Assembly: GCF_003334785.1 (NCBI RefSeq)
Contig: NZ_QOWV01000012.1
Strand: one strand, 5' to 3'
Source of the DNA: Escherichia coli
Lineage (GTDB): Bacteria; Pseudomonadota; Gammaproteobacteria; Enterobacterales; Enterobacteriaceae
Length of the DNA stretch: 64,000 nt
Each line of letters starts with the position of its first letter. The first letter of the stretch is position 1. The notes beneath the pieces are model-generated. The model was not told where the DNA came from. It ran no database searches and worked only from the letters and a program-made list of their open reading frames with translations. The translations under genes were made by a program, and so were the position numbers. Positions 11,761-59,690 of the stretch are shown here, piece by piece.

Positions 11761-11779
11761 TGTGACTGTCTCCTGTCTA

Positions 11780-41785: not shown

Positions 41786-41809
41786 TCAGAGGCTGATGAC
41801 AAACGCAAA

Positions 41810-41912
41810 GCAGCCTGATGTGCTACGCTTATCAGGTCTACATAACCCATTAAATATATTGAACTTTAAAAATTTTGTAGACCTGGTAAGGCGTTCACAT
41901 AGCATCCGGCAT
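41810..41912. repeat. REP/BIME cluster between rpnD and yjiR
   Basis: gcctgatgtgctacgcttatcaggtctac and gtagacctggtaaggcgttcacatagcatccggca palindromic units. Confidence 0.55.
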
Positions 41913-42027
41913 GAACAAAGCGCACTTTGCCTAAGCCATGCTGTAACGTGGCGATGACCCTGCAAAGATAAAACGAGTTACAGGCGATTCGTGAGAGTAA
42001 ATCAGGGGCCTCGGCACTAATTCGAAT

Positions 42028-43440
42028 TTATTCCATTGCCCGATACACGGCATCGCCAATTTGCTTTAGTGCTTCGCGATAGGTTTCGCTGAGCGGCAAA
42101 GCGCAGTTGATGCGCAGACAATTACGGTATTTGCCGGAAGCCGAGAAAATCGAGCCTGCTGCCACCTGGATTTTCATGCGGTACAGCTGCCGCGCGACGC
42201 AGACCATATCGACCTGTTCAGGCAATTCGATCCACAGTAAAAATCCGCCTTTCGGGCGCGTAATACAGATTTCGCAGGGAAAATATTCCCGTATCCAGCA
42301 GGTATAAAGCGCCAGATTGCGCTGATAAGTCTGCCGCATCCGCCGGATATGGCGATGATAGTGACCTTCCAGCACAAACGTTGCCGCCGCCATTTGCGTG
42401 GACGGCACATTAAAGCTGCTGATGGCGTATTTCATATGCATCAGTTTATCGTGATAACGCCCCGGTGCGACCCAACCCACGCGCAGGCCTGGTGCAATGC
42501 TTTTACTGAACGAGCTGCACAACAGCACTCGCCCGTCGATATCCCAGGAATGAATGGTCCGCGGGCGCGGATACTCCGTTGCCAGTTCGCCGTAGACATC
42601 ATCTTCAAAAATCACAATATCATGACGCTGAGCGAGAGAGAGAACGGCCCGTTTGCGCGCGTCCGGCATAATAAATCCCAGCGGATTATTACAGTTTGGC
42701 ACCAGAATGATGCCTTTAATCGGCCACTGTTCCAGCGCCAGTTCCAGCGCTTCAACGCTGATGCCAGTTTCTGGATCGGTTGGGATTTCAATCACTTTCA
42801 CGCCCATACCGCGCAGCATCTGCATCGAACCGTAATAACAGGGGGATTCGACCGCGACAATATCGCCCGGTTTACACACCGCCATTAACGCCAGCGACAT
42901 CGAGTTATGGCAGCCGCTGGTGATAATGATGTCATCGGCGGTGACCACCGAGCCGCTGTCGAGCATCAGGCGGGCAACCTGCTCACGCAATACCCGCTGA
43001 CCGGCTAACAAGTCATAACCGAGAACGGTTTGCAGATTATGCTGCACCACCCGGCTTAGCTCCCGCCACAGCGGTTTCAGGCTGGGCGTTTCGACATCCG
43101 GCGTGCTTTTGCTTAACGGAACAATGGAACTGTCGCTATGCGCTTCCAGCATATCCAGCACCTGATCCCACTGGGTAATTTCCACCGGACGCTGCACCGG
43201 ACGCGTCATTGGTGGCACTGGCGGCTGGGCTTTACGTTGTGCGACAAAATAACCCGAACGCGGCTGTGGGGTGATGAGCTTCATCGTCTCCAGCGTCTGA
43301 TACGCCTGCTGCACGGTGCTGATGCTGACGCCGTGCTTCTGGCTTAAGCTGCGCACCGACGGCAATTTCTCCCCGTGACGATACAGCCCTTGCTCAATCC
43401 GCTCGGCAAGTAGAGTCGCCAGATGTTGATAACGCGTCAT
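42028..43440 (-). CDS. yjiR: MocR/GntR-family regulator with aminotransferase-like domain YjiR
   Basis: 470 aa; N-terminal GntR helix-turn-helix (LPSVRSLSQKHGVSISTVQQAYQTLE) plus PLP-fold domain. Confidence 0.85.
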   Translation of the reverse strand: MTRYQHLATLLAERIEQGLYRHGEKLPSVRSLSQKHGVSISTVQQAYQTLETMKLITPQPRSGYFVAQRKAQPPVPPMTRPVQRPVEITQWDQVLDMLEAHSDSSIVPLSKSTPDVETPSLKPLWRELSRVVQHNLQTVLGYDLLAGQRVLREQVARLMLDSGSVVTADDIIITSGCHNSMSLALMAVCKPGDIVAVESPCYYGSMQMLRGMGVKVIEIPTDPETGISVEALELALEQWPIKGIILVPNCNNPLGFIMPDARKRAVLSLAQRHDIVIFEDDVYGELATEYPRPRTIHSWDIDGRVLLCSSFSKSIAPGLRVGWVAPGRYHDKLMHMKYAISSFNVPSTQMAAATFVLEGHYHRHIRRMRQTYQRNLALYTCWIREYFPCEICITRPKGGFLLWIELPEQVDMVCVARQLYRMKIQVAAGSIFSASGKYRNCLRINCALPLSETYREALKQIGDAVYRAME

Positions 43441-43616
43441 GCTGTATTCCTTATTTGGACCATACAGAGAGAAAAACCGGTACAGATGAGGCTAAAAAAC
43501 CGGATGCAGATGCTGTTTTAACCTGTCTGTATGTTAAATAAAACTAATATTTGCATCTGTATTGTGAACTGCCAGAAGACGGATGATGAAGCCTCTGAAA
43601 GATGAGGAGGCAGCAG

Positions 43617-43781
43617 ATGGAATTTCACGAAAACAAAGCCAAAACGCCGTTTATCGGCCTAGTGCAACTCTGGCAGGAGGTGAGGCGTTGGCGGCGGCAA
43701 ATGCAGACCCGACGAGTGTTACAGCAGATGAGTGATGAACGGTTGAGGGATATCGGGTTACGCAGGGAGGATGTGGAGTGA
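43617..43781 (+). CDS. yjiS: DUF1127 small protein YjiS (54 aa)
   Basis: MEFHENKAKTPFIGLVQLWQEVRRWRRQMQTRRVLQQMSDERLRDIGLRREDVE; GAGGAGG Shine-Dalgarno; below the 60-aa track cutoff, found by manual translation. Confidence 0.8.
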   Translation: MEFHENKAKTPFIGLVQLWQEVRRWRRQMQTRRVLQQMSDERLRDIGLRREDVE

Positions 43782-44277
43782 GGGGGGATATAAATTTATA
43801 TAATAAAACGTTTTTATGTTTTTAAATTAAGTTATAAAAATTTTCCCGAGACTATTCATCAATAGGTATGGAGTGTACAGGAATATCTTCTTCACTAACC
43901 TCTTTAAACTCATGTCGATAATGGTCAAAAAACGCACAGTGATTACTTGTGTTTTTTGACTGACTTTACAACTCTCATTATTCGCTATTGTGAAGTTTCT
44001 CTAATTGTTTTATATCCTGGAAAGTTAAATGTTAGTTACTGCATACTTTTTTATTTTTTGAGATTTATTTTCATTTGAAATTATAAAGTCAGGTGATAAA
44101 TGAGTTGTGATTAATAGATAGTTGATATCATTTTTATCTAAAATTGATTTATGGTGCCGACCTGAAAAATTAGCTATTGCCGCCTGATTAATTATACGAT
44201 ATTTTTAAAGGTTTTCTTTCAAATTAGAAATATTCTGGGGTTTTGTTTTTGTATCTTTTATCTCTAAGGAGCTTGCT

Positions 44278-47043
44278 TTGGGTCAATCAGAATACATTTC
44301 ATGGGTAAAATGTACTTCCTGGCTAAGTAACTTTGTGAATCTTAGAGGGTTGAGACAACCGGATGGCCGTCCTCTTTATGAATATCATGCAACCAATGAT
44401 GAATATAACCAATTAACGCAGCTACTCCGTGCAGTCGGTCAATCACAATCTAATATATGTAATAAGGACTTTGCTGCCTGTTTTGTTCTTTTTTGCTCTG
44501 AGTGGTACCGCAGGGATTATGAACGGCAATGCGGATGGACGTGGGACCCTATATATAAAAAAATAGGGATTTCATTTACCGCCACAGAGCTTGGTACCAT
44601 CGTACCGAAAGGGATGGACGATTACTGGCTGCGCCCAATTCGATTTTATGAATCTGAACGACGCAATTTTCTCGGAACATTATTCAGTGAAGGTGGTTTA
44701 CCTTTCCGGTTACTCAAAGAATCAGACAGTCGCTTTCTGGCTGTTTTCTCCAGGATCCTTGGACAATATGAGCAAGCAAAGCAGTCAGGTTTTTCTGCCC
44801 TTTCGCTGGCAAGAGCCGTCATAGAAAAATTAGCGCTGCCAACTGTTTTTAGCGAAGATACTTCTGTAGAACTTATCAGTCATATGGCTGATAACCTCAA
44901 TTCCTTAGTACTTACTCACAACCTAATAAATCACAAAGAACCAGTACAACAGCTTGATAAGGTTCACCCTACCTGGCGAAGCGAGTTTCCAATACCGTTA
45001 GATGATGAAACAGGAACGCATTTTTTGAATGGACTGCTATGCGCAGCCTCTGTAGAGGCTAAGCCTCGACTACAAAAAAATAAGAGTACGCGTTGCCAAT
45101 TCTATTGGTCAGAAAAGCATCCAGATGAGCTTAGGGCGATAGTATCTCTCCCTGACGAAGTTTCCTTTCCTGTAACAAGCGAGCCGTCAACTACGCGCTT
45201 TGAACTTGCCATTTGTGAAGATGGTGAGGAAGTCTCTGGCCTTGGGCCAGCTTATGCTTCCCTGGAAAACAGACAGGCAACAGTTCGATTACGTAAAAGC
45301 GAAGTGAGATTTGTCAGGCAAAATCCATCGGCAGGTTTGTCGTTAGTGGCTCGTGCTGGAGGGATGATTGTTGGGAGCATTAAACTTGATGACAGTGAAA
45401 TTGCCATTGGTGAGGTGCCGTTAACCTTCATCGTTGATGCAGATCAATGGCTGTTACAGGGACAGGCCTCCTGTAGTGTGCAAAGCAGCGATGTTCTGAT
45501 TGTGCTCCCTCGGGACAATAGTACTGTTGCTGGTTTTGATGGCCAATCGAGTGCAGTAAACGTATTAGGACTTGTCGCTATGACTCTGGCGGTTGCTCTG
45601 CGTCAGGCGCTAGCGGGCGTTCTGGGTATCTCCGGCGCAGAACTCGGCTATTCTGTACGCCCGGTCAGACTGGAGGATGGGCAATCGGTATTAGCCGTTC
45701 AGCTTTATGATGTGATCAGCGGTGGTGCAGGTTTTGCCTCCAGCGCACCGGTACACATTGAAGCTATTTTGCAGGGAATGGTGAAACAGTTAGGTTGCCG
45801 CCATTGTGATACTGCATGTAGTGAATGCCTGCTTGATTCCCAGACTCGCCACGATCACGATTTGCTGGATCGCAAAGCGGCGCTGGCCTGGCTTGGCGAT
45901 GACTTCACGTATTACATCGGTTTACCGGATGAAGAGACATTCTCGCTGCCGGATGCCCGCTACTGCCCTGGCGCTATTGGCGATACGATTCGCCGGGCGA
46001 TTAACGAAGGCGCTGAAAAGCTCACCCTGTGGATGACCGGCGCGCCCAATGAGTGGGATTTATACGCCCGTCAGTTCCGCGCGGCGGTTCAGAGCTATCG
46101 GCTAAAAGACAACGTCGAGGTCGATCTTGTTATACCTGCGGGAGTGGATGACCCGGATCTGTTGTATGAACTATCGCAATTTACTGCGCTGGGTGTGCGG
46201 CTGTGCCATGTTGAACAGGATCTGCAATTGCCGATCGTTGCCCAGGTTACCTTTGCCGATCGCGTGATGACGCTGGCTTCTCGCAGCCAGCAGGCAACGA
46301 TTCCGGGGCCGGAGTGGCACCTGAATGACGAACTGGTGGTGCGTAGTCTCGGTTATAAAACGGTAGAACTGAACGAGTTTATTCTGCCGGCTAAAGCCGC
46401 CAACGCTGTCGAGCGGGTCAAAGACATTCAGATCCACAAACAGTTGAATGGACCACTTTCGCAGTTTGGACAACGCTTCTGGGACGTGCTGTTTAACGAC
46501 CATGAAGAAGCACAGTCACTGATGAATAACACGCGAATTACCGGCGTTCACTATACCGATCGCTATCTGCAAAACCCGGTTGCGCTGGCGTTGTTGGGAT
46601 CAATTCTGAGACCGCTAAAAACAAAGCTGACCGATGGCGCTGAAGTGGCGCTGGATACGCTGTTTAAAGATAAAGATCGCCCCGGTAACCGGCCTTTCCA
46701 TGACTGGATGAGCATAGCGGATTTTCAGGATTTCGCTGATCAGTGGTTTGCTGCTGCGCTGGGCAGGCCGATAGAACTAACGGTGTTCGACTCGCCGCGC
46801 GATATCCCTCACCATCGTAAACTGACGGTGACTTTTGAGGATGGTCAGGTTTTGAAGATCCGCTTCGATCAGGGGATGGGCTACTGGCGTATCAACTTTG
46901 CATCGCAATGGCATTACTTTGACTTCCGCGATGACGTTTCTTTCCAGTTAGTCAAAATGGCTCAGGCCTGCAATGAAGGAAATGTGGCCAACAGCGAAGA
47001 GAGCTGGGCAACGGATGTGCTGGTGGAGGTGAGCGCCTCCTGA
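44278..47043 (+). CDS. orphan 921-aa protein of the immigration-control region; contains GG-x-G plus C-x2-C-x3-C-x2-C motif (DUF1998/MZB-like zinc ribbon); function unknown, candidate defence protein
   Basis: Long uninterrupted ORF; TTG start 6 nt after AAGGAG; motif [13 protein letters not shown]...[34 protein letters not shown] at nt ~45715-45830; occupies the slot where K-12 carries yjiT/yjiV and mcrBC. Confidence 0.8.
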
Positions 47044-47085: not shown

Positions 47086-47427
47086 TCAGGCAACTTTCTG
47101 TTTACCGGCAATCACCCCAATAAATTCCTGCACCTGCTTTTGTTTACGCGCCGACAGCTTGCACACCCTGCGCAGCGACTGCATCAGTTCGCTCTCTTCG
47201 GCGGCGGGTGGTTGAGCGGTGAGGACGATGCAGCCTTCCATCACTTTGACATCTACCGCCGTGCCGGTGGCAAAACCGGCGGCTTCCAGCCACTGACCTT
47301 TCAGGGTGATGGCGGGAATATGCGCGTGATCCGGGTAGCGGCTCGCATAACCGACGGTGACATGACGGTTATTTGCCGGAGAGACTTCTGCTTCGAACGG
47401 TTGTGCAATAGAATACGTGTCAGTCAT
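47086..47427 (-). CDS. symE: SOS-induced toxin-like endoribonuclease SymE
   Basis: [74 protein letters not shown]...; 113 aa from the internal Met. Confidence 0.85.
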
Positions 47428-47497
47428 AACTGCTATTCTCCGATAATAGTGATTGTGATGAGCGGTGCGGGTGTGTTGGCGCACATCCGCACCGCGC
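47420..47497 (+). ncRNA. symR: cis-antisense sRNA SymR (position inferred, boundaries approximate)
   Basis: In K-12 SymR is encoded opposite the symE start/5'UTR; here an inverted repeat gcggtgcgg...ccgcaccgc at 47462-47496 lies in the corresponding position. Confidence 0.4.
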
Positions 47498-47503
47498 TAA
47501 ATA

Positions 47504-47654: not shown

Positions 47655-48968
47655 TCAGGATTTTTTACGCGAGGCTTTTTTACCTCCGCTGGCTGCGCGT
47701 TCAGCTTTGATTTTTTCCAGCAACGCGGCGGCGCTGTTTTCTCCGCTGATTAATTCCGGGTTTTCGGCCCGCCACTGGGCGGTGAGTTCACCACGGAACG
47801 CTTTTGCCAGGATGGATTGCGTCAGGTTGTTAACGCGGGCTAAGGCGTTGTTGACCTGTTTTTCTATGGTGTCTGCGTAGGCGAAGAGCTGCTCGACGCG
47901 GCGAACGATTTCGTGTTGTTCGGGGAGTGGAGGAACAGTTATTGGGTATGCAATTAATTTCTGTGCATTAATATTTGATTGACTGACCCCATCAGATTTT
48001 ACTGAGTAGCAATATTGCCTCCCCAAAATGCTATTTAAATGGTAGTTAAGATAGTCAGGGTTTAAATCAGGTAAACATTGAACCCTAATCAAATAACCTG
48101 CATAAATAGCTGGTTGCTCTGATTTATATATGGCTGTTTTCCCGACAAGTTCAGGACTATTTGTACGATTGAATAATACATCATTGTACTCAAGTTTATA
48201 CTTTTCAATTTCTATGGTATCTGAAGTATAGACTAGATCCGTCCAGTCCAATTTTCCGCCCTGAAGATTGCCCATTCTTAATACAGGAATGAGTCCTTCT
48301 TTATTAGACTTAGATGACGTTCCATAACTTGGTTTTTTTATAAATTCCCCAAGTTTGCCTTCTATCCACCCAGACAGGCTCGAATTATCTCTCCAGTCTT
48401 CAGTTAGTTTTCCACTTACCGCGGCACCCAGCACCGCCTGACGAAAACGTTTCAGGATTTGTGGGATTTGCTCAAGACGTGCTTTGGTGCTCTCTACCTG
48501 CGCCAGCAGCGTATCGAGTTTTTCAGCGATGATTTTTTGTTCTGAAATTGGAGGAAGTTGTATTTCCCAAGCCTCCATTCCAGCTTTGGTAATATGTGGC
48601 ATTGCCACGCCGTGAGCCGATGCTTTAAGTGCCTCTGTAATATTCAATAATGCATAATAAGCAAATTGCTTATTAAGTGCAGGGGATGTTTCAATCTTCC
48701 AAATATGGTAGTGATAAATTAGTTTATGATCCCACTTCGACCAATATGGACCAAATGTTGCTGACCAAGCATATAGGAGATCATTTTTATAGCAATATTT
48801 ATCTTCCTGTAGCTCTAAGTTGGAATAAAACCATTTATTCCCTCCATTCAAATTTTGAATTCTGAGAATAGGAACACCTTCTGTGAGCATTTCTTCTTTC
48901 TTATATGCTCTGCCATTGATGAGGGTCAAAACATCACCCAACTGGCATATTTGCCAATTTTTACTCAT
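47655..48968 (-). CDS. hsdS: type I restriction-modification specificity subunit HsdS (437 aa, type IA framework, target-recognition domains unlike EcoKI)
   Basis: Conserved central and C-terminal repeats (PPISEQKIIAEKLDTLLAQVE... and PPLPEQHEIVRRVEQLFAYAD...) flank two AT-rich variable domains; ATGA overlap with hsdM. Confidence 0.9.
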   Translation of the reverse strand: MSKNWQICQLGDVLTLINGRAYKKEEMLTEGVPILRIQNLNGGNKWFYSNLELQEDKYCYKNDLLYAWSATFGPYWSKWDHKLIYHYHIWKIETSPALNKQFAYYALLNITEALKASAHGVAMPHITKAGMEAWEIQLPPISEQKIIAEKLDTLLAQVESTKARLEQIPQILKRFRQAVLGAAVSGKLTEDWRDNSSLSGWIEGKLGEFIKKPSYGTSSKSNKEGLIPVLRMGNLQGGKLDWTDLVYTSDTIEIEKYKLEYNDVLFNRTNSPELVGKTAIYKSEQPAIYAGYLIRVQCLPDLNPDYLNYHLNSILGRQYCYSVKSDGVSQSNINAQKLIAYPITVPPLPEQHEIVRRVEQLFAYADTIEKQVNNALARVNNLTQSILAKAFRGELTAQWRAENPELISGENSAAALLEKIKAERAASGGKKASRKKS

Positions 48969-50554
48969 TCCTTCACCCCACCAAACGCTTCTTCCAGCAA
49001 CTGACGCTGTGCATCCGCCTCATCGCTCGCCCCCAGTTCACGCATCAGCGCATCCAGTTCACCCAGCGCCTGTACCAGTTCGCCCATCGCTTCTGCCGCT
49101 AATACATCCGGCTCCGGCAGGTTGTCGGCGTCAATGCTGTCTTTATCTTTCAGCCAGGAGATATCCAGCGAATCGGATTTCGCGGAGCGGATCCACTCGC
49201 GGCTGAACTTGCGCCAGCGGCTGGTAGCCAGATGCTGATCGGTATTTTTGTTCTCTTCGCTGTCGGCAACTTCCGTCTCTTCGGCGTTAAAACTCCATTC
49301 CCCTTCAGTACGCGGGCTTAAGCCGTGGGGATCTTCGCCATACACGCGCTCAAACGGCTGCAAATGCTCGTCGGTAAACGGCGTGCGTTTACCAAAGCTC
49401 GGCATATTGGTCCGCAGGTCGTACACCCACACGTCGTCGGTGCAGTTCTTATCCTGATGCGGGTTCGCCACTGTGCCTTTGGTAAAGAACAGCACGTTGG
49501 TCTTCACGCCCTGCGCGTAAAAAATACCGGTCGGCAGACGCAGAATGGTGTGCAGATGACACTTATCCATCAGGTCACGACGGATGTCGGTGCCTTTGCC
49601 GCCTTCAAACAACACGTTATCTGGCACCACCACCGCCGCACGACCGCCGGGATGCAGCGTTTCGATAATATGCTGCATAAAGCACAGCTGTTTGTTGCTG
49701 GTCGGGTGAACAAAGGTGCGGGTAATGTTGGTGCCTGCGGCGCTGCCAAACGGCGGGTTAGTGGCGACAATATGCGCCTTCGGCAGGTTTTCACCGTCGC
49801 TGCCCAGGGTGTTGCCCAGACGGATTGCGCCGCCGTGGTCGAGGTTGCCTTCAATATCGTGCAGCAGGCAGTTCATCAGCGCCAGACGACGGGTGCCGGG
49901 CACCAGTTCGAGGCCGATAAACGCGCGGTGGATCTGGAAATCCTGTGTGTCGCCATCAAGGTCGTCCAGATCGTTAGTCTGCGACTTAACGTAGCGGTCG
50001 GCTTCAATCAAAAAGCCCGCCGTACCCGCTGCCGGGTCCTGCACCACTTCACGCGGCTGCGGTTTCAGCAGATGAATAATGGTTTTAATCAGCGGACGCG
50101 GGGTGAAGTACTGGCCCGCGCCAGACTTGGTTTCGTTCGCGTTCTTCTGCAACAGCCCTTCGTACATATCGCCGAAGTCATCGCGCGACTTACCGTGCGC
50201 ACCGTTGTACCAGTCCAGTGAATCCATATTGCTGACCAGTTCGGTCAACTGTTTTGGCTGGGTAATGGTGGTGTTGACGTTCTGGAACACCGCCTGCACC
50301 AGCTTTTGATTGTCGGCGCCCAGATGTACCAGCAGGTTACGGTAGAACTGCAACTGCTCCTGACCGATACGGGATTTCAGGTCGTCCCAGCGGTAGCCTT
50401 CCGGCAGGTATTCCGCTTCCTGTCTGGTTTCTTTACACATTTTCAAAAACAGCAGCGAGGCGAGTTCATTGACGTAGTTTTGATAGGAAACGCCGCCATC
50501 GCGCAGGTTGTCGCACAGCTTCCACAGCTTGGCGACCAGATCGTTATTGTTCAT
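48965..50554 (-). CDS. hsdM: type I restriction-modification N6-adenine methyltransferase HsdM
   Basis: 529 aa; NPPF catalytic motif (HIVATNPPFGSAAG); sequence closely matches EcoKI-family HsdM as recalled. Confidence 0.9.
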   Translation of the reverse strand: MNNNDLVAKLWKLCDNLRDGGVSYQNYVNELASLLFLKMCKETRQEAEYLPEGYRWDDLKSRIGQEQLQFYRNLLVHLGADNQKLVQAVFQNVNTTITQPKQLTELVSNMDSLDWYNGAHGKSRDDFGDMYEGLLQKNANETKSGAGQYFTPRPLIKTIIHLLKPQPREVVQDPAAGTAGFLIEADRYVKSQTNDLDDLDGDTQDFQIHRAFIGLELVPGTRRLALMNCLLHDIEGNLDHGGAIRLGNTLGSDGENLPKAHIVATNPPFGSAAGTNITRTFVHPTSNKQLCFMQHIIETLHPGGRAAVVVPDNVLFEGGKGTDIRRDLMDKCHLHTILRLPTGIFYAQGVKTNVLFFTKGTVANPHQDKNCTDDVWVYDLRTNMPSFGKRTPFTDEHLQPFERVYGEDPHGLSPRTEGEWSFNAEETEVADSEENKNTDQHLATSRWRKFSREWIRSAKSDSLDISWLKDKDSIDADNLPEPDVLAAEAMGELVQALGELDALMRELGASDEADAQRQLLEEAFGGVKE

Positions 50555-50639
50555 TGTGAGTTCCGTAAATTAAGCAGCGGCCCAAATTTATTGGGCCGCA
50601 TAAGAATAAATTGCCGAGGGTAATATACACAAAATCATT

Positions 50640-50755
50640 CAGGTTGCATCAAGGCGGCAAGTGAGTGAATCCCCGGGAGCGTACAGAAGTACGTGACCGG
50701 GGTGAACGAGCGCAGCCAACGCAGAGGCAGCCTGAAGGATGAAGTGTATACGTGT
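50640..50755. repeat. ERIC (IRU) intergenic repeat between hsdR and hsdM
   Basis: aagtgagtgaatccccgggagcgtacagaagtacgtgaccggggtgaacgagcgcagccaacgcagag matches the ERIC consensus. Confidence 0.7.
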
Positions 50756-53700
50756 CAGGCCAGCTCGTCCCAGATATAATCGCTGAATTTATCGAGCAGG
50801 TTGTCGAGATTATCGTCAAAGGTTCTTTGCAGCATCGCCTTCCCGCCGCGACGGTGGAAGTTGCCGGTTTTGAAGACATCGTCGTCGAGCACCACTTTCT
50901 CTTTCAGCGCCTGTGCTAAACGATCGAGCCAGCTTAATTGCTCGCTGCTCCAGTCGTTTTCGCCCTTGATGCGCGTCAGCGCGTGATCGACACGTTCCTC
51001 AAACGGTTTCAGCGCATCGCCCACCGCAGCGCGGCGAATATGTCCAATCAACCGGGCGGCAATATCTTCATTACGCGTCTCTTTCCACGCTTTGCGCAGG
51101 GAAGATTCCTCAAAGTGCTGGCGGTCAAACCACTCCTGGAGTTCGACCAGCCCTTTACGGGTGAGATCGCGCGGGCGATTGATCACCGCCTGCAATGCCG
51201 GTTGCGCGTTCGGGGAACGTTGCACCAGCGAGTCAAAGGCTTCGAGGAAATCCTGCGGCGTGTCGTAATCACCGTACAGCGATTTTACGCTCAACACTTC
51301 ATCGTCGATATCGAGGAAGATCGGCGCATCATTCAGGTTATTGATATCAGTTTTCAGCTTTTCCAGGCGGGCGATAAAGCCAGGCAGCTTGTTAAAGACT
51401 TCGGCGCTCCAGTGCGGCCCTTTTTCCCGCAGGCGCGAGGCGAAGCCGTTAAAGCCCACCCCCGCCGCGTCCTGGCATAGCTCATCCAGACGACGCACCT
51501 GTTTATCTATCGTTTCGCTGCGGTCACGGTTAAACGTGGCCAGGCCGATGATGCGCTGGAGCTTCGCCACCAGTTGTTCATGGCTGTGCTCGGCAAAACT
51601 GCGGCCATCCGCTTCGGTGATTTTATAGGTTTCTGAATCGGTAATTTCGTTGACCAGCGTTTGCAGCTCCACCTTAGGACGCACCACCACCGGACGCATG
51701 GTGTCGACGCTCTCCAGCGTGCTGTATATATCGACGCAGTCGAAAATCTTAAAGCTGGTTTTATTCACGTCCGGGCACAAGCGCGTGGCGCGGCCTTTCA
51801 TCTGCTCGTACAGAATACGGCTGCGTACTTTACGCAGGAACACGATGTTACAGATCGACGGAATATCGACGCCGGTCGTCAGCAGGTCGACGGTTACCAC
51901 AATATTGGGCAGCCGCTCTTTATTGAAGCGGGTGATCATGGTCTGCACTTTGCGCGCGTCTTTATCGGCATCACCGGTGATCTTGATTATCGCGTCGTGC
52001 TCCAGTTGCGGATACTTTTTCTTGAACGCGGTACGCAACTCTTCCACCACCATATCGGCATGGGCATTGGTGACGCAGAAGACCAGCGTTTTTTGCGACC
52101 CGGTCGGGTCAAGGTAGTTGGTGAGTTCGTTACAGACGGCGCGGTTAAACGCCGGGATCACCAGGCCACGGTTAAAGTCGGCGACCTCAAAATCCTGATC
52201 GTCTTCCAGGGTGTCGTTGATTACTTCCCCCTGCGGGCTGATGCGCTCTACCTGTTCGCCTTTGGAGAGATAAACACCCTCCTGTGCGTTGCGGGTGGTG
52301 ATCTGAATTGGTGGATCCTGGTCGATCAGAAAACCGTCGATAACCGCGGTACGGTAGGTATAACGGTAAACCGGCTCGCCGAAAATCTGCACCGTATGCA
52401 ACGCCGGGGTGGCGGTGAGGGCGATTTTTATCGCATCGAAGTGATCGAGAATGCGACGGTAGGCAGAGACATAATCCAGCTGGCTGCGGAACTGTAGTTC
52501 GCCTTCGGTCTGCTCTTTATCGAGAATATAGCCGCGATGCGCTTCATCGACGACGATACAGTCGTAACGGGCCACCGGCATCGGTTCATCTGATTGCAGG
52601 GTGCGTTTCACCAGCGACTGTACGGTGGCAACGTGAATTTTGGTGCTGTCTTCCGGGAATTTATCCGTCAGCCCTTTAATGTCGAAAATGCTGTTGAAGG
52701 TGTCGCCGTTAATACGCGTATCTTCAAACGCCCCCAGCGCCTGCTCGCCAAGAGAACGGCGATCCACAAGGAAGAGAATGCGTTTAAAACGCTGGGACTG
52801 GATCAGGCGGAACATCATGGCAATTGCGGTGCGGGTTTTACCGGTACCGGTCGCCATCGCCAGCAGGATCTCTTGTTGACCCTTGACGATTGCCTTTTCC
52901 ACCGCGCGGACGGCATCTTCCTGATAATAACGCAGGCCCAGCTCGCTCATGCCGGGATTATCGGCAAACCACTGATTCTGTTTTTGCGGTTCGCTGCCGA
53001 GCATTTCCAGCAGCTCTTCCGGGCGATGCCACTCGGGTAAGGCTTTCGACATATTGCGGGTATCACGCACGTCGCGATACCAGATGCCACTTTTAGTCTT
53101 CATTGCTGCGCGGTATTCGCGCCCGTTGGTGGAGTAGCAGAAGGGGATTTTAAACCGTTGTTGGCCGCTGGAGTCCTGCCAGCTAGTTTCATACTCCGGC
53201 ACCGCTTCATGCACTTCATCCGGTGAGTAGTGCTCAAGCAAGGTTTCCCGCAGGAAGCCATTATCGAAGCATTTACTGTAGCGATACGACTCATTGAGCT
53301 TGCCGGGAACGTCGATATTTTTACGTTTCGCCTCTACCACCGCGATGGGTTTGAGGCCGACAAACAGCACATAATCCGCAAAGCCCTGTTTACCCGTTTC
53401 ATCTTTCCCGGTCGGCCATTCGGCAATGGCTTTATTGACGCCGGGTTCCGGGCGCGCGCCTTTGGAGAAGCGCAGGGTTTTGCTATCGGCCTGCCAGCCT
53501 GCTTTACGCAGTTGCGCATCAATCAGGAAGCGGCTCTCTTCTTCGCTAAGGTTGAGTGTGCGCTTGATGGCCTGATCGGTAATTTCTTTGTGGTAAGCCT
53601 TACGTTCCTGTTCAGTCTGTTTGGCCAGTTCCGCGTTCTTCTCGGCGAGCTGTGCTTCCAGCGCCGCAAGGCGAGCCTGGGTTTGCGCTTCTGTTTCCTG

Positions 53701-54267
53701 CTGTTTGCCTTCCAGAATAGCGATATAGCCGTTCAGGGCAACCAGCTTCTGCTGTTGCGCTTCGACTTCTGCCTGAGTCTGCGCTTTTTCTCGCACCTGC
53801 TGTTCAAGCTGTTGTTTTAGCGTCAGCACTTCCTGGTGATAGAGGTTCTCGCCACGTTCTGGTAACACAAACACCGGCACCGGGAAGTCATAATCTTTAG
53901 TGACCAGACGGTAGTACCAGACAGCCAGGCGGAACCCGAGTCGCAGGCACATCTGGGCATCGTCGAGATCGTTGTGATATTCGTGCACCGCCTGGTTACC
54001 AATGCGGCGTAATTTGTGAAATACAGAGAGAATGTTGTCATCAACGAAGGCGATTTTGCCGAGTTCGCGCAGGAGATCGTGTTGATTCTCACAAGGGGGG
54101 ATGTTGAGTAACAGACCAAGATGTTTCGCTGTGGCTTCGCCAAACATACGCATTTTAATTAGCGTCGTATTGGGATCATCCGGGTAGTTATTTTCCGCCG
54201 CACAGGCGATGGCATAAGTGAAGTCGTTGACGCCCTTCAGGAATTCGAAGTTGGATTTATTCATCAT
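50755..54267 (-). CDS. hsdR: type I restriction endonuclease/translocase HsdR
   Basis: 1170 aa; Walker A (AMATGTGKTRTA) and DEAH-like (VVDEAHRG) helicase motifs; operon context. Confidence 0.9.
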   Translation of the reverse strand: MMNKSNFEFLKGVNDFTYAIACAAENNYPDDPNTTLIKMRMFGEATAKHLGLLLNIPPCENQHDLLRELGKIAFVDDNILSVFHKLRRIGNQAVHEYHNDLDDAQMCLRLGFRLAVWYYRLVTKDYDFPVPVFVLPERGENLYHQEVLTLKQQLEQQVREKAQTQAEVEAQQQKLVALNGYIAILEGKQQETEAQTQARLAALEAQLAEKNAELAKQTEQERKAYHKEITDQAIKRTLNLSEEESRFLIDAQLRKAGWQADSKTLRFSKGARPEPGVNKAIAEWPTGKDETGKQGFADYVLFVGLKPIAVVEAKRKNIDVPGKLNESYRYSKCFDNGFLRETLLEHYSPDEVHEAVPEYETSWQDSSGQQRFKIPFCYSTNGREYRAAMKTKSGIWYRDVRDTRNMSKALPEWHRPEELLEMLGSEPQKQNQWFADNPGMSELGLRYYQEDAVRAVEKAIVKGQQEILLAMATGTGKTRTAIAMMFRLIQSQRFKRILFLVDRRSLGEQALGAFEDTRINGDTFNSIFDIKGLTDKFPEDSTKIHVATVQSLVKRTLQSDEPMPVARYDCIVVDEAHRGYILDKEQTEGELQFRSQLDYVSAYRRILDHFDAIKIALTATPALHTVQIFGEPVYRYTYRTAVIDGFLIDQDPPIQITTRNAQEGVYLSKGEQVERISPQGEVINDTLEDDQDFEVADFNRGLVIPAFNRAVCNELTNYLDPTGSQKTLVFCVTNAHADMVVEELRTAFKKKYPQLEHDAIIKITGDADKDARKVQTMITRFNKERLPNIVVTVDLLTTGVDIPSICNIVFLRKVRSRILYEQMKGRATRLCPDVNKTSFKIFDCVDIYSTLESVDTMRPVVVRPKVELQTLVNEITDSETYKITEADGRSFAEHSHEQLVAKLQRIIGLATFNRDRSETIDKQVRRLDELCQDAAGVGFNGFASRLREKGPHWSAEVFNKLPGFIARLEKLKTDINNLNDAPIFLDIDDEVLSVKSLYGDYDTPQDFLEAFDSLVQRSPNAQPALQAVINRPRDLTRKGLVELQEWFDRQHFEESSLRKAWKETRNEDIAARLIGHIRRAAVGDALKPFEERVDHALTRIKGENDWSSEQLSWLDRLAQALKEKVVLDDDVFKTGNFHRRGGKAMLQRTFDDNLDNLLDKFSDYIWDELA

Positions 54268-54454
54268 TGTTATTAATCCATTGCTGTGTGGGCCTGTCCA
54301 AATATTTAAGGCCCATAACGTCTTATCTTAGCTTTCTGTACCTTTCCGGACAATGACCGGAGTCACAGCAACTGACTCATTTCTAACGTGTTCGTCTATT
54401 TTGGTAGTGTTATAGTAGCCGAAAAACATCTACCTGATTCTGCAAGGATGTACT

Positions 54455-55369
54455 ATGACGGTTCCTACCTATGACAAATTTATTGAACCTGTTCTGCGTT
54501 ATCTGGCGACAAAACCGGAAGGTGCAGCCGCGCGTGATGTTCATGAGGCTGCCGCGGATGCATTAGGACTGGATGACAGCCAGCGAGCGAAAGTCATTAC
54601 CAGCGGACAACTTGTTTATAAAAATCGTGCAGGCTGGGCACATGACCGTTTAAAACGTGCCGGGTTGTCGCAAAGTTTGTCGCGTGGCAAATGGTGCCTG
54701 ACTCCTGCGGGTTTTGACTGGGTTGCGTCTCATCCCCAGCCAATGACGGAGCAGGAGACGAACCATCTGGCCTTCGATTTTGTGAATGTCAAACTTAAGT
54801 CACGGCCGGATGCCGTCGATTTAGATCCGAAAGCCGACTCTCCCGATCATGAAGAACTAGCAAAGAGCAGCCCGGACGATCGGTTAGATCAGGCGCTAAA
54901 AGAGCTTCGTGATGCGGTGGCTGATGAGGTTCTGGAAAACTTATTGCAGGTTTCTCCTTCGCGCTTTGAAGTCATTGTTCTGGATGTTTTGCATCGCCTG
55001 GGGTATGGCGGCCACCGTGATGATTTGCAGCGTGTTGGCGGTACTGGAGATGGTGGCATCGATGGTGTGATATCGCTTGATAAACTTGGCCTGGAGAAAG
55101 TTTATGTTCAGGCAAAACGTTGGCAGAACACTGTAGGCAGGCCAGAATTACAGGCATTTTACGGCGCACTGGCTGGGCAAAAGGCGAAACGTGGGGTGTT
55201 TATTACCACTTCTGGATTTACGTCTCAGGCGCGTGACTTTGCTCAATCCGTCGAGGGTATGGTGTTGGTTGATGGGGAACGCCTGGTGCACTTAATGATC
55301 GAAAACGAAGTAGGGGTTTCTTCACGTTTGTTGAAGGTGCCGAAACTGGATATGGACTATTTTGAGTGA
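54455..55369 (+). CDS. mrr: type IV modification-dependent restriction endonuclease Mrr
   Basis: 304 aa; MTVPTYDKFIEPVLRYLATKPEGAAARDVHEAAADALGL... winged-helix N-terminus plus Mrr catalytic core (VYVQAKRW). Confidence 0.9.
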   Translation: MTVPTYDKFIEPVLRYLATKPEGAAARDVHEAAADALGLDDSQRAKVITSGQLVYKNRAGWAHDRLKRAGLSQSLSRGKWCLTPAGFDWVASHPQPMTEQETNHLAFDFVNVKLKSRPDAVDLDPKADSPDHEELAKSSPDDRLDQALKELRDAVADEVLENLLQVSPSRFEVIVLDVLHRLGYGGHRDDLQRVGGTGDGGIDGVISLDKLGLEKVYVQAKRWQNTVGRPELQAFYGALAGQKAKRGVFITTSGFTSQARDFAQSVEGMVLVDGERLVHLMIENEVGVSSRLLKVPKLDMDYFE

Positions 55370-55374
55370 AATAT

Positions 55375-55408
55375 CAGGCCGGATGCGGCTGCGCCTTATC
55401 CGGCCCAT
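55375..55408. repeat. REP element between mrr and yjiA
   Basis: caggccggatgcggctgcgccttatccggccc. Confidence 0.55.
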
Positions 55409-55414
55409 AACCCC

Positions 55415-56371
55415 TTACTTCCTCAACCCCGCAAACGCCGCCCGAATCTCATCCTCCGGCAACTGAATCCCGATAAACACCATCGTGCTATGCGGTTTTT
55501 CATCGCCCCACGGTCTGTCCCAGTCGGCGCTGTAGAGGCGCTGGACGCCCTGGAACAGCAGGCGGTTAGCTTCGCCGTCAATCCACAGCATCCCTTTGTA
55601 ACGCAGCAGTTTATCCGCCGATTCCAGCAGCAGGTTTTCCATCACGCGGGAAACTTCGCTGATATCTACCGGGTAATCCAGTTCCACCACAATCGACGAA
55701 ATATCGTTTTGTTTATCCGCGATAAAGTGGAAACGCGGTTTGGTGCTGACGACGTTCTCTTCCAGCATAAAACCGTTGGTGTTGAACAGCAGGCCCAGGT
55801 CGATGTCGCCGTGGGTAACGGTGTAGACCGGTGCACGGGCGTTGATGCGCGCCAGGCGTTCGCGCAGTTTTTCTGCTTCGCCTGCGACGTCGGTTTTAGT
55901 CAGCAGAATACGGTCGGCGTAGCCAACCTGTGACTGGGCGATGGTGAACTGGTTCATCTGCTCATCGGCATGTACCGCATCCACCAGCGCAATCACGCCG
56001 TCCAGCAGGTAACGCTGGCATAAAATCTCATGGGAGAAAAAGGTCTGAATAATCGGGCCGGGATCGGCCATGCCGGTGCATTCAATGACCAGACGGTCGA
56101 ACTGAATATTGCCCTTGTCGAGATTATCCAGCAGGTCGAGTAGCGCGTCCTCCAGCTCGTTGGAGCGCGAACAGCAGATGCAGCCGTTGGTCAGCGTTTT
56201 GATCTGCGTGGCGCGGTCACCAATCAGTTGATCATCAACGGAGACTTCGCCGAATTCGTTTTCAATCACGGCAATCTTGTAGCCGTGTTGTTCGTTAAGA
56301 ATATGGCGCAGCAGGGTGGTTTTGCCCGCGCCTAAAAAACCGGTGAGTAGGGTAACTGCAATCGGGTTCAT
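55415..56371 (-). CDS. yjiA: COG0523/CobW-family metal-associated GTPase YjiA
   Basis: MNPIAVTLLTGFLGAGKTTLLRHILNEQHGYKIAVIENEFGEVSVD... P-loop and CxCC motif (GCICCS); 318 aa from the internal Met. Confidence 0.85.
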   Translation of the reverse strand: MNPIAVTLLTGFLGAGKTTLLRHILNEQHGYKIAVIENEFGEVSVDDQLIGDRATQIKTLTNGCICCSRSNELEDALLDLLDNLDKGNIQFDRLVIECTGMADPGPIIQTFFSHEILCQRYLLDGVIALVDAVHADEQMNQFTIAQSQVGYADRILLTKTDVAGEAEKLRERLARINARAPVYTVTHGDIDLGLLFNTNGFMLEENVVSTKPRFHFIADKQNDISSIVVELDYPVDISEVSRVMENLLLESADKLLRYKGMLWIDGEANRLLFQGVQRLYSADWDRPWGDEKPHSTMVFIGIQLPEDEIRAAFAGLRK

Positions 56372-56381
56372 GCTCTCTCCA

Positions 56382-56585
56382 TTAACAACAGCGCATACCG
56401 CCTTTACCATCGCCGCCGTAGCGCGCGTTCTGGCGTTCGCGGAAGAATTCTTCATAGCTCATGTACGGCTTGTCGGGATGGTTGGTCTTCATATGCTCGA
56501 CGTAGTTGTCGTAGTCTGGAATGCCAATCAACATCTTCGCCGCCTGGCCGAGATATTTTTTTGCCTGTCCTAAGTTACCAAACAT
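56382..56585 (-). CDS. yjiX: DUF466 small protein YjiX
   Basis: 67-aa ORF immediately downstream of btsT and upstream of yjiA, as in K-12. Confidence 0.8.
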
Positions 56586-56595
56586 AGTTCACTCT

Positions 56596-56628
56596 GATAA
56601 GAACAAAGCCCCGCCGAAGCGGGGCTAA
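56596..56628 (-). terminator. intrinsic terminator downstream of btsT
   Basis: agccccgcc-gaa-gcggggct hairpin followed by a T-rich run on the minus strand. Confidence 0.5.
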
Positions 56629-56634
56629 ACACGG

Positions 56635-58785
56635 TTAGTGGTGCGAAGAGATCTTCACGCCGCCTTCCGGGATTGGAACGTACGGTGTTTCTTTGTCAGT
56701 ACGTTTGTCGCTGTTACGCACCTTCAGCCAGGTTTTGAAACCGTAGAAGATGATGCTGTACACCACAATCAGGAACAGAATACTCAGGCCCGCGTTGGTG
56801 TAGTTGTTCACAACAATGTGGTTCATGTTGGCAATCTGCTGCGCCGTCAGGTCAGTACCGTTAGCAATCTTCTCTTTGTACTGGCTTGCCATGTAGAAGA
56901 AGCCTTCCATCTGTGGGTTGGTGCTGAACAGTTTCAGACCCAGTGCCCAGGTGGTGCAGATAAGCAGCCATACAGCCGGAACAACGGTAACCCAGATGTA
57001 TTGGGTGCGCTTCATCTTAATCAGCACAACGGTGCCCAGTACCAGCGCCACGGCTGCCAGCATCTGGTTGGAGATACCGAACAGCGGCCACAGGCTCTTA
57101 ACGCCGCCCAGCGGATCGACCACGCCCTGATACAGCAGGTAGCCCCACAGACCCACACAGCCCGCAGTACCGATGATACCGGCAACCAGAGAGTCGGTTT
57201 TTTTCAGGAACGGGATGAAGTTACCCAGCAGGTCTTGCAGCATAAAGCGGCCAGAACGGGTACCCGCATCCAGCGCGGTCAGGATGAACAGGGCTTCGAA
57301 CAGAATACCGAAGTGATACCAGAAGCCCATGTCAGCCATCGGCAGCACTTTGTGGAACACATGAGCGATACCTACCGCCAGCGTCGGCGCACCACCTGCA
57401 CGGTTCAGGACAGAAGGCTCACCAATGTCTTTCGCGGTTTGCAGGATCTGCTCTGGCGAAATCACGAAGCCCCAGGAGCTGACGGTTGCCGCCGCGTGTG
57501 CGGTAACGTCTTTCAGCTGCGCCATGATGATCGGCGCGTTCTCGCCACCCATTTCATGCAGGTTAGGCATGGTGATGCCAAGGCCAGCAGGCGGGGTATT
57601 CATCGCGAAGTAAAGACCCGGTTCGATGATGGACGCAGCAACCAGCGCCATAATCGCCACGAAGGACTCCATCAGCATTGCGCCGTAGCCAATGAAACGC
57701 GCGTCGGTTTCATTAGCCAGCAGTTTCGGCGTCGTACCGGAAGAGATCAGCGCGTGGAAGCCAGATACCGCACCACAGGCGATGGTGATGAACAGGAACG
57801 GGAACAGAGCGCCTTTCCACAGCGGGCCAGTACCGTCAATGTACTGGGTCATCGCAGGCATTTTCAGTTCCGGGTTCAGCACCACGATACCCAGCGCCAG
57901 GCCGACGATAACGCCGATTTTCAGGAAGGTTGCCAGATAGTCGCGCGGTGCGAGGATCAGCCACACCGGCAGCAGTGCGGAAACAAACGCATAGCCAATC
58001 AGCGCGAAGGTAATGGTGGTGTCTTTAAAGGTCAGTGCCGGACCCCAGTACGGATCGTGAGCAATCACGCCACCGAAGTAGATAGAGGCAACCAGCAGCA
58101 CGATACCAATGACAGAGACTTCACCCACACGCCCCGGACGGATAAAGCGCATGTAGATACCCATAAACAGCGCAATCGGTACGGTTGAGCAAACGGTGAA
58201 AACACCCCACGGGCTTTCGGCCAGGGCTTTAACCACAATCAGCGCCAGGACGGCAAGGATGATGATCATGATTAAGAAACAGCCAAACAGCGCGATAGTC
58301 CCCGGTACTGGTCCCATCTCTTCTTTGATCATCTCACCGAGAGATGCGCCGTTACGGCGAGAGGAGATAAACAGCACCATAAAGTCCTGTACCGCACCGG
58401 CCAGTACTACCCCCGCCAGCAGCCACAGCGTGCCAGGTAGGTAGCCCATCTGCGCGGCGAGAACCGGACCAACCAGCGGACCAGCACCGGCGATAGCGGC
58501 GAAGTGGTGACCAAACAACACGTAACGGTTGGTCGGAACGTAGTTCAGACCGTCGTTGTTAATAACCGCAGGCGTCGCGCGCGTGGGGTCGAGTTTCATC
58601 ACCTTCTGGGCGATGTACAAACTGTAGTAGCGATACGCCACCAGATACACCGACACAGAGGCGACCACGATCCACAGGGCGCTGACGTGCTCCCCCCGAC
58701 GTAATGCAACTACCGCGAGGCAGAATGCACCGATGATTCCGAGAATCACCCAGGGTATGTGCTTGAATAGTTTTTTCGTATCCAT
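56635..58785 (-). CDS. btsT: CstA-family pyruvate/H+ symporter BtsT (YjiY)
   Basis: MDTKKLFKHIPWVILGIIGAFCLAVVALRRGEHVSALWIVVASVSVYLVAYRYYSLYIAQ...; 716 aa from the internal Met. Confidence 0.9.
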   Translation of the reverse strand: MDTKKLFKHIPWVILGIIGAFCLAVVALRRGEHVSALWIVVASVSVYLVAYRYYSLYIAQKVMKLDPTRATPAVINNDGLNYVPTNRYVLFGHHFAAIAGAGPLVGPVLAAQMGYLPGTLWLLAGVVLAGAVQDFMVLFISSRRNGASLGEMIKEEMGPVPGTIALFGCFLIMIIILAVLALIVVKALAESPWGVFTVCSTVPIALFMGIYMRFIRPGRVGEVSVIGIVLLVASIYFGGVIAHDPYWGPALTFKDTTITFALIGYAFVSALLPVWLILAPRDYLATFLKIGVIVGLALGIVVLNPELKMPAMTQYIDGTGPLWKGALFPFLFITIACGAVSGFHALISSGTTPKLLANETDARFIGYGAMLMESFVAIMALVAASIIEPGLYFAMNTPPAGLGITMPNLHEMGGENAPIIMAQLKDVTAHAAATVSSWGFVISPEQILQTAKDIGEPSVLNRAGGAPTLAVGIAHVFHKVLPMADMGFWYHFGILFEALFILTALDAGTRSGRFMLQDLLGNFIPFLKKTDSLVAGIIGTAGCVGLWGYLLYQGVVDPLGGVKSLWPLFGISNQMLAAVALVLGTVVLIKMKRTQYIWVTVVPAVWLLICTTWALGLKLFSTNPQMEGFFYMASQYKEKIANGTDLTAQQIANMNHIVVNNYTNAGLSILFLIVVYSIIFYGFKTWLKVRNSDKRTDKETPYVPIPEGGVKISSHH

Positions 58786-58804
58786 AGTAAAACCTGGCAT
58801 TTTA

Positions 58805-58915
58805 CTCGTCGTCTTTTGGCTTACAGGTGCGGCAGCTGCGTTCGTTCACCTCTGACACTTACTGTTGTAAGCTCCCGGGGATTCACTCACTTGCTGCCTT
58901 CCTGCAAACCAAAAT
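58805..58915. repeat. ERIC (IRU) repeat upstream of btsT, inverted relative to the copy at 50640-50755
   Basis: ...ctgttgtaagctcccggggattcactcacttgctgcc... is the reverse complement of the ERIC core seen between hsdR and hsdM. Confidence 0.6.
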
Positions 58916-59135
58916 CCATAGAGTAATTTGTTAATCATAGGCCGAAGCCGTTCTAGGTTTGCGTTGCGTTTGAGGAGGTAAATTGACCGCTATCCTGCAG
59001 TGATGTTGCCAGAGATACGCGCGCGTAAAGTAAGGTAAATAACTGAGTGGTTATTTTAGGGATGTAAGCGGTCAGGAATGGCGGTGAGCGGTTGGGCAAG
59101 AATTATTCATCGGGTGGATATGTGATTGAGATCAC

Positions 59136-59171
59136 AATAAAAATGCCCCTTCGACGAATGCGTGAAGGGGC
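59136..59171 (-). terminator. intrinsic terminator downstream of hpaC
   Basis: ccccttc...gaagggg hairpin followed by a T-run on the minus strand. Confidence 0.5.
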
Positions 59172-59177
59172 TGGAGC

Positions 59178-59690
59178 TTAAATCGCAGCTTCCATTTCCA
59201 GCATCACCGGATGGAAACGGCGTTTAAAGTAGATAAGTCCGTGACCTTCTGCACTGAGGATGATGTTTTTAATCTCCACCAGATACACCAGATGTGTGCC
59301 AATTGCCTGCACATCGCGGATCTCACCTTCAAGACTGGCCAGCGAACCTTTTAGCACCGGCTGCGCCAGCGGACCTTTTTGCCAGCATGAGAGGCTAAAA
59401 CGCTCTTCCATCGCCATGCCTGTCATGCCCGCGAAGTGGCGTGCCATCAGTTCCTGCTCATGGTTGAGGACGTTGACGCACAACTTGCCGTTGCCCTGAA
59501 AAACCGGGTTCATCGCACTGTTGGCGTTAATGCACACCATCAGCGACGGTGGTGTATCCGTGACCGAGCAGACAGCCGTTGCCGTAATCCCGCATTGTCC
59601 GGTGTCGCCCTCGGTGGTGATAATATTTACCGCTGCCGACAGGCTGGCCATCGCGTCACGAAAGCGCAGGCGTTGTTCATCTAATTGCAT
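59178..59690 (-). CDS. hpaC: 4-hydroxyphenylacetate 3-monooxygenase reductase component HpaC
   Basis: 170-aa flavin reductase MQLDEQRLRFRDAMASLSAAVNIITTEGDTGQCGITATAVCSVTDTPPSLMVCINANSAMNPVF... Confidence 0.9.
   Translation of the reverse strand: MQLDEQRLRFRDAMASLSAAVNIITTEGDTGQCGITATAVCSVTDTPPSLMVCINANSAMNPVFQGNGKLCVNVLNHEQELMARHFAGMTGMAMEERFSLSCWQKGPLAQPVLKGSLASLEGEIRDVQAIGTHLVYLVEIKNIILSAEGHGLIYFKRRFHPVMLEMEAAI

Follow-up and report, generated by a model that had tools for sequence, protein, structure and literature searches.

Two ERIC elements in inverted orientation between hsdM and btsT of Escherichia coli are most likely independent insertions

In a 64-kb stretch of E. coli DNA (the window), two short repeats in opposite orientation bracket a block at 50755-58785 that lies on the minus strand except for mrr, and comprises hsdR (50755-54267, minus strand), mrr (54455-55369, plus strand), yjiA (55415-56371), yjiX (56382-56585) and btsT (56635-58785), the last three on the minus strand. 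The arrangement raises the question whether the repeats act together, as a substrate for inversion or as the ends of a mobile unit, or whether each has a history of its own. The original prediction had placed one ERIC in the gap between hsdM and hsdR and its inverted partner upstream of btsT, and both the repeat search and the alignment bear out this placement. The gene names are also right, as they agree with the annotation of a 100% identical record (NZ_CP104509.1, E. coli strain E2), which lists hsdS, hsdM, hsdR, mrr, yjiA, yjiX, btsT and hpaC in the region.

The first element, ERIC-A, is located at 50626-50748 on the plus strand, plus meaning that the core is read as GTGAATCCCCGGGAGC. The second, ERIC-B, occupies 58803-58925 on the minus strand, in the btsT leader. 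Both are 123 bp long, with ends that were set by comparison with empty alleles, namely TACAC...GTGTA in ERIC-A and, on the minus strand, TACTC...GAGTA in ERIC-B. Each strand of the window holds a single exact copy of the core GTGAATCCCCGGGAGC. The repeat search reported inverted arms of 105 nt (50644-50748 and 58803-58907), which are 8054 nt apart and 75% complementary in the absence of gaps. With gaps, the identity is about 81% across aligned 150-nt stretches, and 73% for the whole elements (91 identities in 125 alignment columns). The longest exact match, GCAAGTGAGTGAATCCCCGGGAGC, has only 24 nt (50657-50680 on the plus strand, partner 58871-58894 on the minus strand) and holds a SmaI site (CCCGGG). 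The local alignment score of the two intergenic regions is 55, compared to 11.3 +/- 1.9 for 300 shuffles, and the likeness is therefore not due to chance. The predicted long near-identical core is real for the 24 nt, but not for the rest: the copies align along 123 bp and well above the shuffled controls, but their similarity is at the family level only.

The family in question is already known. ERICs are MITEs of the Enterobacteriaceae, for which reviews give a length of about 127 bp, terminal inverted repeats and a TA duplication. The ERIC-PCR primers, a pair that turns up in 233 papers and the sequences of which were confirmed from the literature, match both copies at identical offsets: 39 for the reverse complement of ERIC1R (3 mismatches out of 22 in ERIC-A, 2 in ERIC-B) and 61 for ERIC2 (3 and 5 mismatches out of 22, respectively). 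Both elements are imperfect palindromes with a terminal TA, and fold far better than shuffled sequence, with predicted RNA energies between -38 and -61 kcal/mol and z-scores between -3.0 and -9.1, depending on the strand. Both are intergenic, ERIC-A 4 nt past the hsdR stop codon (50755-50757, minus strand) and upstream of hsdM, and ERIC-B between the BtsR box and the Shine-Dalgarno sequence. ERIC-A reads TA-TACAC...GTGTA-TA, with the flanking TA dinucleotides at 50624-50625 and 50749-50750, and the empty allele of strain wlxctx60 has a single TA instead. For ERIC-B, there is no clean TA duplication, so that a duplication is ambiguous, and the insertion history is not fully explained, because 5 of the 14 adjoining bases differ from the empty allele. 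This is the only deviation, and not an essential one, from a likeness that extends to the size, the palindrome, the primer-site core, the TA-ended inverted repeats, the intergenic location, the dispersed copies and the presence or absence between strains. The prediction that both elements are ERICs is thus correct. When the complete window was compared with Rfam at the gathering threshold, symR was the sole match, and no ERIC family was hit. When ERIC-B served as the query, each of the 5,426 genomes gave a match, and the number of matching places per genome ranged from 2 to 15, with a median of 9. The review PMC10969869 credits Wilson and Sharp (2006) with 14 extra ERICs in non-K-12 strains. 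In a family with about nine detectable copies per genome, inverted orientation and a spacing of 8 kb are nothing unusual, and the pair is an ordinary one.

According to the original prediction, the block is a substrate for inversion, which would uncouple hsdR from hsdM-hsdS. The copies are indeed inverted and about 8 kb apart, and they have in common an exact core of 24 bp, which is about the minimum length that RecA needs to work efficiently in E. coli, as Shen and Huang reportedly found in 1986. Nevertheless, a RecA-dependent switch appears very improbable. In searches with a synthetic chimeric query, the inverted junction was found at a coverage of at least 80% in none of 5,426 complete E. 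coli genomes (best coverage 57%), although both copies are present in one colinear alignment piece, in the same order as in the window, in roughly 280-370 of them, a bracket from evenly spaced ranks of the match list and not an exact count. Among metagenome contigs, the inverted junction was also missing, whereas 30 carried the normal junction, which served as the positive control. The comparison with other strains thus yields a single orientation of the block, both in isolates and in metagenomes. Assemblies would reveal fixed inversions only, and rare inversion events within a culture may still happen. At the population level, however, the inversion switch is largely refuted, and was rejected on these data. 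The properties of the repeats and of the block point the same way: the overall identity is 73%, exact runs do not exceed 24 bp, and the annotated genes of the block (hsdR, mrr, yjiA, yjiX and btsT only) do not include a recombinase.

The proposed consequence of an inversion also carries little weight. The hsdR gene has its own promoter, and an hsdR clone that was cut within ERIC-A, at its SmaI site, complements in trans (PMC3510504), so that an inversion would not switch restriction off. No other SmaI site exists in the hsd locus of K-12, and hsdR and hsdMS have classically been cloned apart at this point, which means that existing experiments already show hsdR working in trans after a cut inside ERIC-A. 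The promoter names Pmod and Pres were not found for the hsd locus in a restriction-enzyme review, where the sole match concerned a different system. For btsT, an inversion would separate the gene from its BtsR- and CRP-controlled promoter. The pair resembles known invertible switches in having inverted repeats around a DNA segment beside a type I restriction-modification system. Examples of such switches are fimS, which this window also contains (annotation puts FimB and FimE at 10386-12062), and the hsdS 'epigenetic invertons' of other type I systems (PMC7672463). They rely on a recombinase of their own, their repeats are short and exact, and populations contain both orientations. In contrast, the ERIC pair has diverged repeats, no recombinase and one orientation, and flanks hsdR and core genes rather than hsdS.

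Alternatively, the two ERICs could bound a MITE-flanked mobile unit that carries hsdR-mrr-yjiA-yjiX-btsT. In other bacteria, MITE pairs can mobilise the DNA between them (reviewed in PMC10969869 and PMC4133298), and the hsd/mrr region does differ among strains. However, the strain-variable segment stops at the 3' end of yjiA (at about 55415), and at neither ERIC, and all 5,426 genomes have yjiA-yjiX-btsT. ERIC-B occurs in 2,063 genomes (38% of the complete E. coli genomes), far more than the 938 with the hsd type that carries ERIC-A, and K-12 has the entire block with ERIC-A only. None of the 9,491 places found suggested an ERIC-bounded copy of the block at another chromosomal or plasmid site. 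A composite transposon was rejected, since the two ERICs occur independently and the boundary of variation is not at an ERIC; we regard it as the least probable of the explanations.

The distribution data instead point to separate histories. ERIC-A is close to fixation in the hsd locus of the K-12/B type (type IA): 893 of the 938 genomes with this hsdM-hsdR junction have it, and the copy in K-12 is 99% identical. ERIC-B is a presence/absence insertion polymorphism: K-12, O157:H7, ST131 and KOr019 lack it, with a clean gap of 123-125 bp, and many of the genomes that have it carry a different hsd region. Moreover, an ERIC copy elsewhere in the K-12 genome is 82% identical to ERIC-B, compared to 73% for ERIC-A. 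It is therefore very likely that the two ERICs were inserted independently and are opposed by chance, that they do not function as a pair, and that the 8-kb block is neither invertible nor mobile.

Independent insertions may still have local effects. That either ERIC hairpin acts at the level of the mRNA, as had also been predicted, is plausible in view of the positions, the strong predicted folds and, by analogy, review accounts of Yersinia ERICs. In these accounts of De Gregorio et al. (2005), Yersinia ERICs close to stop codons modulate mRNA decay via RNase E. ERIC-A, 4 nt past a stop codon and presumably co-transcribed, is similarly placed, whereas ERIC-B is within a leader. Judging from its position, ERIC-A would be part of the 3' UTR of hsdR, and its long predicted hairpin (-46.9 kcal/mol, z-score -5.6 on the transcribed minus strand) could alter the decay of the hsdR mRNA as described for Yersinia. 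It would be followed, at 50577-50599 on the minus strand, by a terminator-like hairpin (GCGGCCCAATAAATTTGGGCCGC, then UGCUUAAUUU), located between ERIC-A and the hsdM start (50554). This hairpin probably marks where the hsdR transcript stops, forms a structure in the leader of hsdM, or does both; in its allelic variants, 9 of 9 pairs are kept only if G.U pairs are allowed on the minus strand. ERICs were also considered as a source of promoters. This idea was dropped, because a scan for consensus sigma-70 promoters found no such site in or near ERIC-B, nor on the minus strand near ERIC-A.

ERIC-B ends 5 nt ahead of the CCAGG Shine-Dalgarno sequence (58793-58797) and 17 nt ahead of the btsT start codon (ATG, 58783-58785). 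Further upstream lies the binding site for BtsR (YehT), ACCGCTTA-N13-ACCACTCA (59044-59072, minus strand), which is kept in Citrobacter and Salmonella; the published 'yjiY YehT bs' oligonucleotide (PMC4847170) has a core that agrees with positions 59040-59075 on the minus strand at every base. Beyond this site, there is a palindrome with the CRP consensus, TGTGATCTCAATCACA (59121-59136). The btsT promoter is CRP-dependent, and btsT is under post-transcriptional control by CsrA (PMC7730263). Located between the controlled promoter and the ribosome-binding site, ERIC-B would be co-transcribed with btsT. The K-12 leader, which lacks the element, is predicted to be unstructured (-13.9 kcal/mol, z-score +0.8), whereas the RNA of ERIC-B in the btsT sense has a predicted energy of -53.1 kcal/mol (z-score -6.4) and behaves as an independent module in the predicted fold of a longer leader. 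The conserved features of the leader, a UUCG hairpin and the Shine-Dalgarno sequence, are on either side of the insertion point. ERIC-B would thus add about 125 nt and a hairpin of -53 kcal/mol, and leave the Shine-Dalgarno sequence uncovered; an element of this kind could modulate the stability, the translation or the CsrA control of the btsT mRNA.

It is a further question whether ERIC-B is neutral. The element could serve the pyruvate transporter gene as a cis-regulatory RNA module, and have been kept, or gained more than once, in that capacity. One hint in this direction comes from Citrobacter portucalensis, where a different 123-bp ERIC (72% identical to ERIC-B and 76% to ERIC-A) likewise stops 5 nt short of CCAGG and faces the same way. 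Of the 56 species sampled, 52 have an empty site. If the element prefers a particular TA site, this could also account for the recurrence at one position. A comparison of E. coli with E. albertii shows 121 of 123 identical positions in ERIC-B, and 142 of 151 in the adjoining leader, a contrast that amounts to very few substitutions. The CsrA control of btsT after transcription would fit a role of the leader RNA, but 62% of the E. coli genomes do without ERIC-B, among them K-12, in which the regulation of btsT was worked out. On balance, we consider a non-neutral ERIC-B unlikely, if clearly less so than an inversion switch. The more specific reading, that the btsT leader is a recurrent landing site for ERICs in Escherichia and C. 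portucalensis and that ERIC-B is a constrained regulatory allele, is somewhat more doubtful still. If true, ERIC-B would alter the strength or duration of the production of BtsT, a pyruvate/H+ symporter, after BtsS/BtsR induction, and would set the 38% of E. coli with the element apart from K-12-like strains.

Two independent insertions, the reading that we favor, are of little import for the structure of the genome: the two ERICs do not act as a switch, and they leave the hsd system unaffected. In the btsT leader, on the other hand, over a third of natural E. coli have a structured insert of 123 bp that K-12 lacks. Since K-12 is the strain in which the regulation of btsT by BtsS/BtsR has been characterized, results on reporters and regulation obtained in K-12 may not transfer directly to the strains that carry ERIC-B.

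The inverted repeat pair bracketing the hsdR-mrr-yjiA-yjiX-btsT block (50755-58785) is real, and both members are known ERIC repeats. An inverted-repeat search across 49-61 kb returned a single long pair, with ungapped arms of 105 nt (50644-50748 and 58803-58907) that are 75% complementary. Comparison with natural empty alleles set the ends at 50626-50748 for ERIC-A, between hsdR and hsdM, and at 58803-58925 for ERIC-B, in the btsT leader and in the opposite orientation, giving 123 bp each. Self-comparison upheld the predicted repeat similarity (local alignment score 55, against 11.3 ± 1.9 in shuffles), but not the predicted long near-identical core: the two elements share 91 identities in 125 aligned columns (73%), with exact runs of at most 24 nt. 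A 16-nt core occurs in the window at ERIC-A and ERIC-B only. Within 47-60 kb, SmaI (CCCGGG) has two sites only, 50672-50677 and 58874-58879, each in an ERIC core.

The sites of the two standard ERIC-PCR primers, which appear as a pair in 233 papers, are found at equal offsets in both elements with 2-5 mismatches in 22 positions. Both are imperfect palindromes, with RNA folds much stronger than those of shuffled sequence. A TA stands immediately outside each end of ERIC-A, against a single TA in its empty allele, and the ERIC-B query matches every one of the 5,426 complete E. coli genomes, the median being 9 places per genome. Primer sites, palindrome, TA flanks and dispersed copies are properties ascribed to ERIC in the literature. 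An Rfam scan of the window found no matching ERIC family.

The tested 8.8 kb are 100% identical to E. coli strain E2 (NZ_CP104509.1), whose annotation, together with the ORF list of the window, provides the gene layout. On the minus strand lie hsdS (47655-48968), hsdM (48965-50554), hsdR (50755-54267), yjiA (55415-56371), yjiX (56382-56585), btsT (56635-58785) and hpaC (59178-59690); mrr (54455-55369) is on the plus strand. The hsdM/hsdR and btsT/hpaC spacers measure 200 bp and 392 bp. Beyond hsdS, the SymR antitoxin RNA (47422-47498, plus strand; Rfam RF01809, 89.5 bits) lies opposite symE (47086-47427). Copies of IS600, IS30 and IS3 cluster with gene fragments at 41492-47043, between symE and a truncated gene (40712-41449) that follows yjiS; the cluster also holds the truncated gene of an MrfA Zn-binding-domain protein.

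The original prediction, that homologous inversion of the 8-kb block uncouples hsdR from hsdM-hsdS, is not supported. A synthetic inverted junction, in which a hybrid ERIC joins the hsdM flank to the 5' end of btsT, had no match at 80% or more query coverage in any of the complete E. coli genomes (5,426); the top coverage of 57% represents merely btsT and ERIC-B. As a gapped pattern it matched no metagenome contig, against 30 contigs for the equivalent pattern of the normal ERIC-A junction. In the same interval of other strains, both ERICs lie in one uninterrupted colinear alignment in about 280-370 genomes, a bracket read from evenly spaced ranks of the whole-interval search (a second bracket was coarser). 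An exact match of 24 bp within otherwise diverged DNA (73% identity) is at the lower limit of what RecA-mediated exchange requires, and the annotated gene content of the block includes no recombinase gene. In contrast to the ERIC pair, the window would hold a genuine recombinase-driven inversion switch at fim: fimA is preceded by the invertase genes fimB and fimE (within 10386-13091), and the fimE-fimA gap (about 12063-12542) is presumably the place of the fimS invertible promoter.

The predicted consequence for hsdR fails as well. hsdR has its own promoter (PMC3510504), and in that study hsdR cloned as a BfrBI-SmaI fragment, expressed from this natural promoter, restored restriction in trans. 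In the K-12 hsd locus the sole SmaI site is within the ERIC-A core and the sole BfrBI site in mrr, so the published clone had already severed hsdR from hsdMS here, with function kept. The classical clones of hsdR and of hsdMS meet at this SmaI site. An inversion would instead separate btsT from its promoter, since the BtsR (YehT) binding site (59044-59072, matching the published oligonucleotide; PMC4847170) and a CRP palindrome (59121-59136) are on the far side of ERIC-B, outside the block.

The histories of the two elements are separate. ERIC-A is present in K-12 (99% identical) and in 893 of the 938 genomes with this hsdM-hsdR junction; a few genomes, wlxctx60 among them, show the site cleanly empty. 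ERIC-B is found in 2,063 of the 5,426 complete genomes and is missing from K-12, O157:H7, ST131 and KOr019, whose empty sites are identical. It is 82% identical to a copy elsewhere in the K-12 genome, and ERIC-A is no nearer to it than other ERIC copies. The promoter-side flank of ERIC-B (58926-58939) differs from the empty allele in 5 of 14 bases (TATGATTAACAAAT vs AACTATTAATCAAT), in a leader otherwise about 99% identical. The 3 bases of the other flank differ as well (AAATG vs ACATG), and comparison with the empty allele revealed no clean TA duplication at the ERIC-B flanks.

The suggestion that the ERIC hairpins are mRNA elements is, by analogy, reasonable. ERIC-A starts 4 nt past the hsdR stop codon, and hsdR transcripts should therefore enter it. 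A terminator-like hairpin on the minus strand (50577-50599) lies about 25 nt beyond ERIC-A and 22 nt upstream of the hsdM ATG. Its natural variants retain 9/9 pairs only via G.U pairs on the minus strand, which suggests an RNA-level element, either an hsdR terminator or an hsdM leader structure. Adjoining ERIC-A, a promoter-like plus-strand site (50752-50780; GTGTCA, 17-nt spacer, TATAAT; 10/12 matches) is directed antisense into the hsdR 3' end.

In carrier strains, we infer, ERIC-B belongs to the btsT 5' UTR: the element is placed after the BtsR-dependent promoter region and before the Shine-Dalgarno, the leader features on either side of it are kept from Salmonella to Escherichia, and a consensus promoter scan found no promoter-like site in or after it. 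The leader is predicted to be unstructured without ERIC-B (-13.9 kcal/mol, z +0.8), and to contain with it a modular -53 kcal/mol hairpin ending 5 nt before the Shine-Dalgarno. By comparison with Yersinia ERICs, for which reviews describe mRNA effects, both ERICs may plausibly influence mRNA decay or translation. Post-transcriptional control of btsT by CsrA (PMC7730263) likewise makes such an effect plausible for this gene. The leader also carries a small GGCUUCGGCC UUCG-loop hairpin (58940-58949, minus strand), kept across genera; in Salmonella and Kluyvera both arms of its stem are altered (CAGCUUCGGCUG). Just past the hpaC stop, a GC-rich hairpin with a T run (GCCCCTTCACGCATTCGTCGAAGGGGC ATTTTT; 59140-59170, minus strand), which the consensus scan did not pick up, is likely a terminator insulating the btsT promoter from the hpa operon.

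In a scan of the btsT 5' end in one genome per species, the site was empty in 52 of 56 loci, including Salmonella, Klebsiella, Kluyvera and most Citrobacter, and also in Escherichia sp. MOD1-EC7003. ERIC-B is present in E. albertii and Escherichia sp. E1V33, both compared with 58803-59075 of the window. The E. albertii copy is identical at 121 of 123 positions, and its adjacent leader (about 150 nt) at 142 of 151. All four combinations of upstream flank (hpa-type or tsr-type) and filled or empty site are seen, which suggests either a long-standing polymorphism accompanied by recombination or gain and loss on several occasions. The sole mildly unexpected result is a different 123-bp ERIC (TACCC...GGGTA) upstream of btsT in Citrobacter portucalensis A60, 72% identical to ERIC-B and 76% to ERIC-A; other Citrobacter species have an empty leader site. 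Its orientation matches that of ERIC-B, and it likewise stops 5 nt short of the CCAGG Shine-Dalgarno (corresponding to 58798-58803). It may reflect either a hotspot of repeated insertion or a polymorphism that is old and shared.
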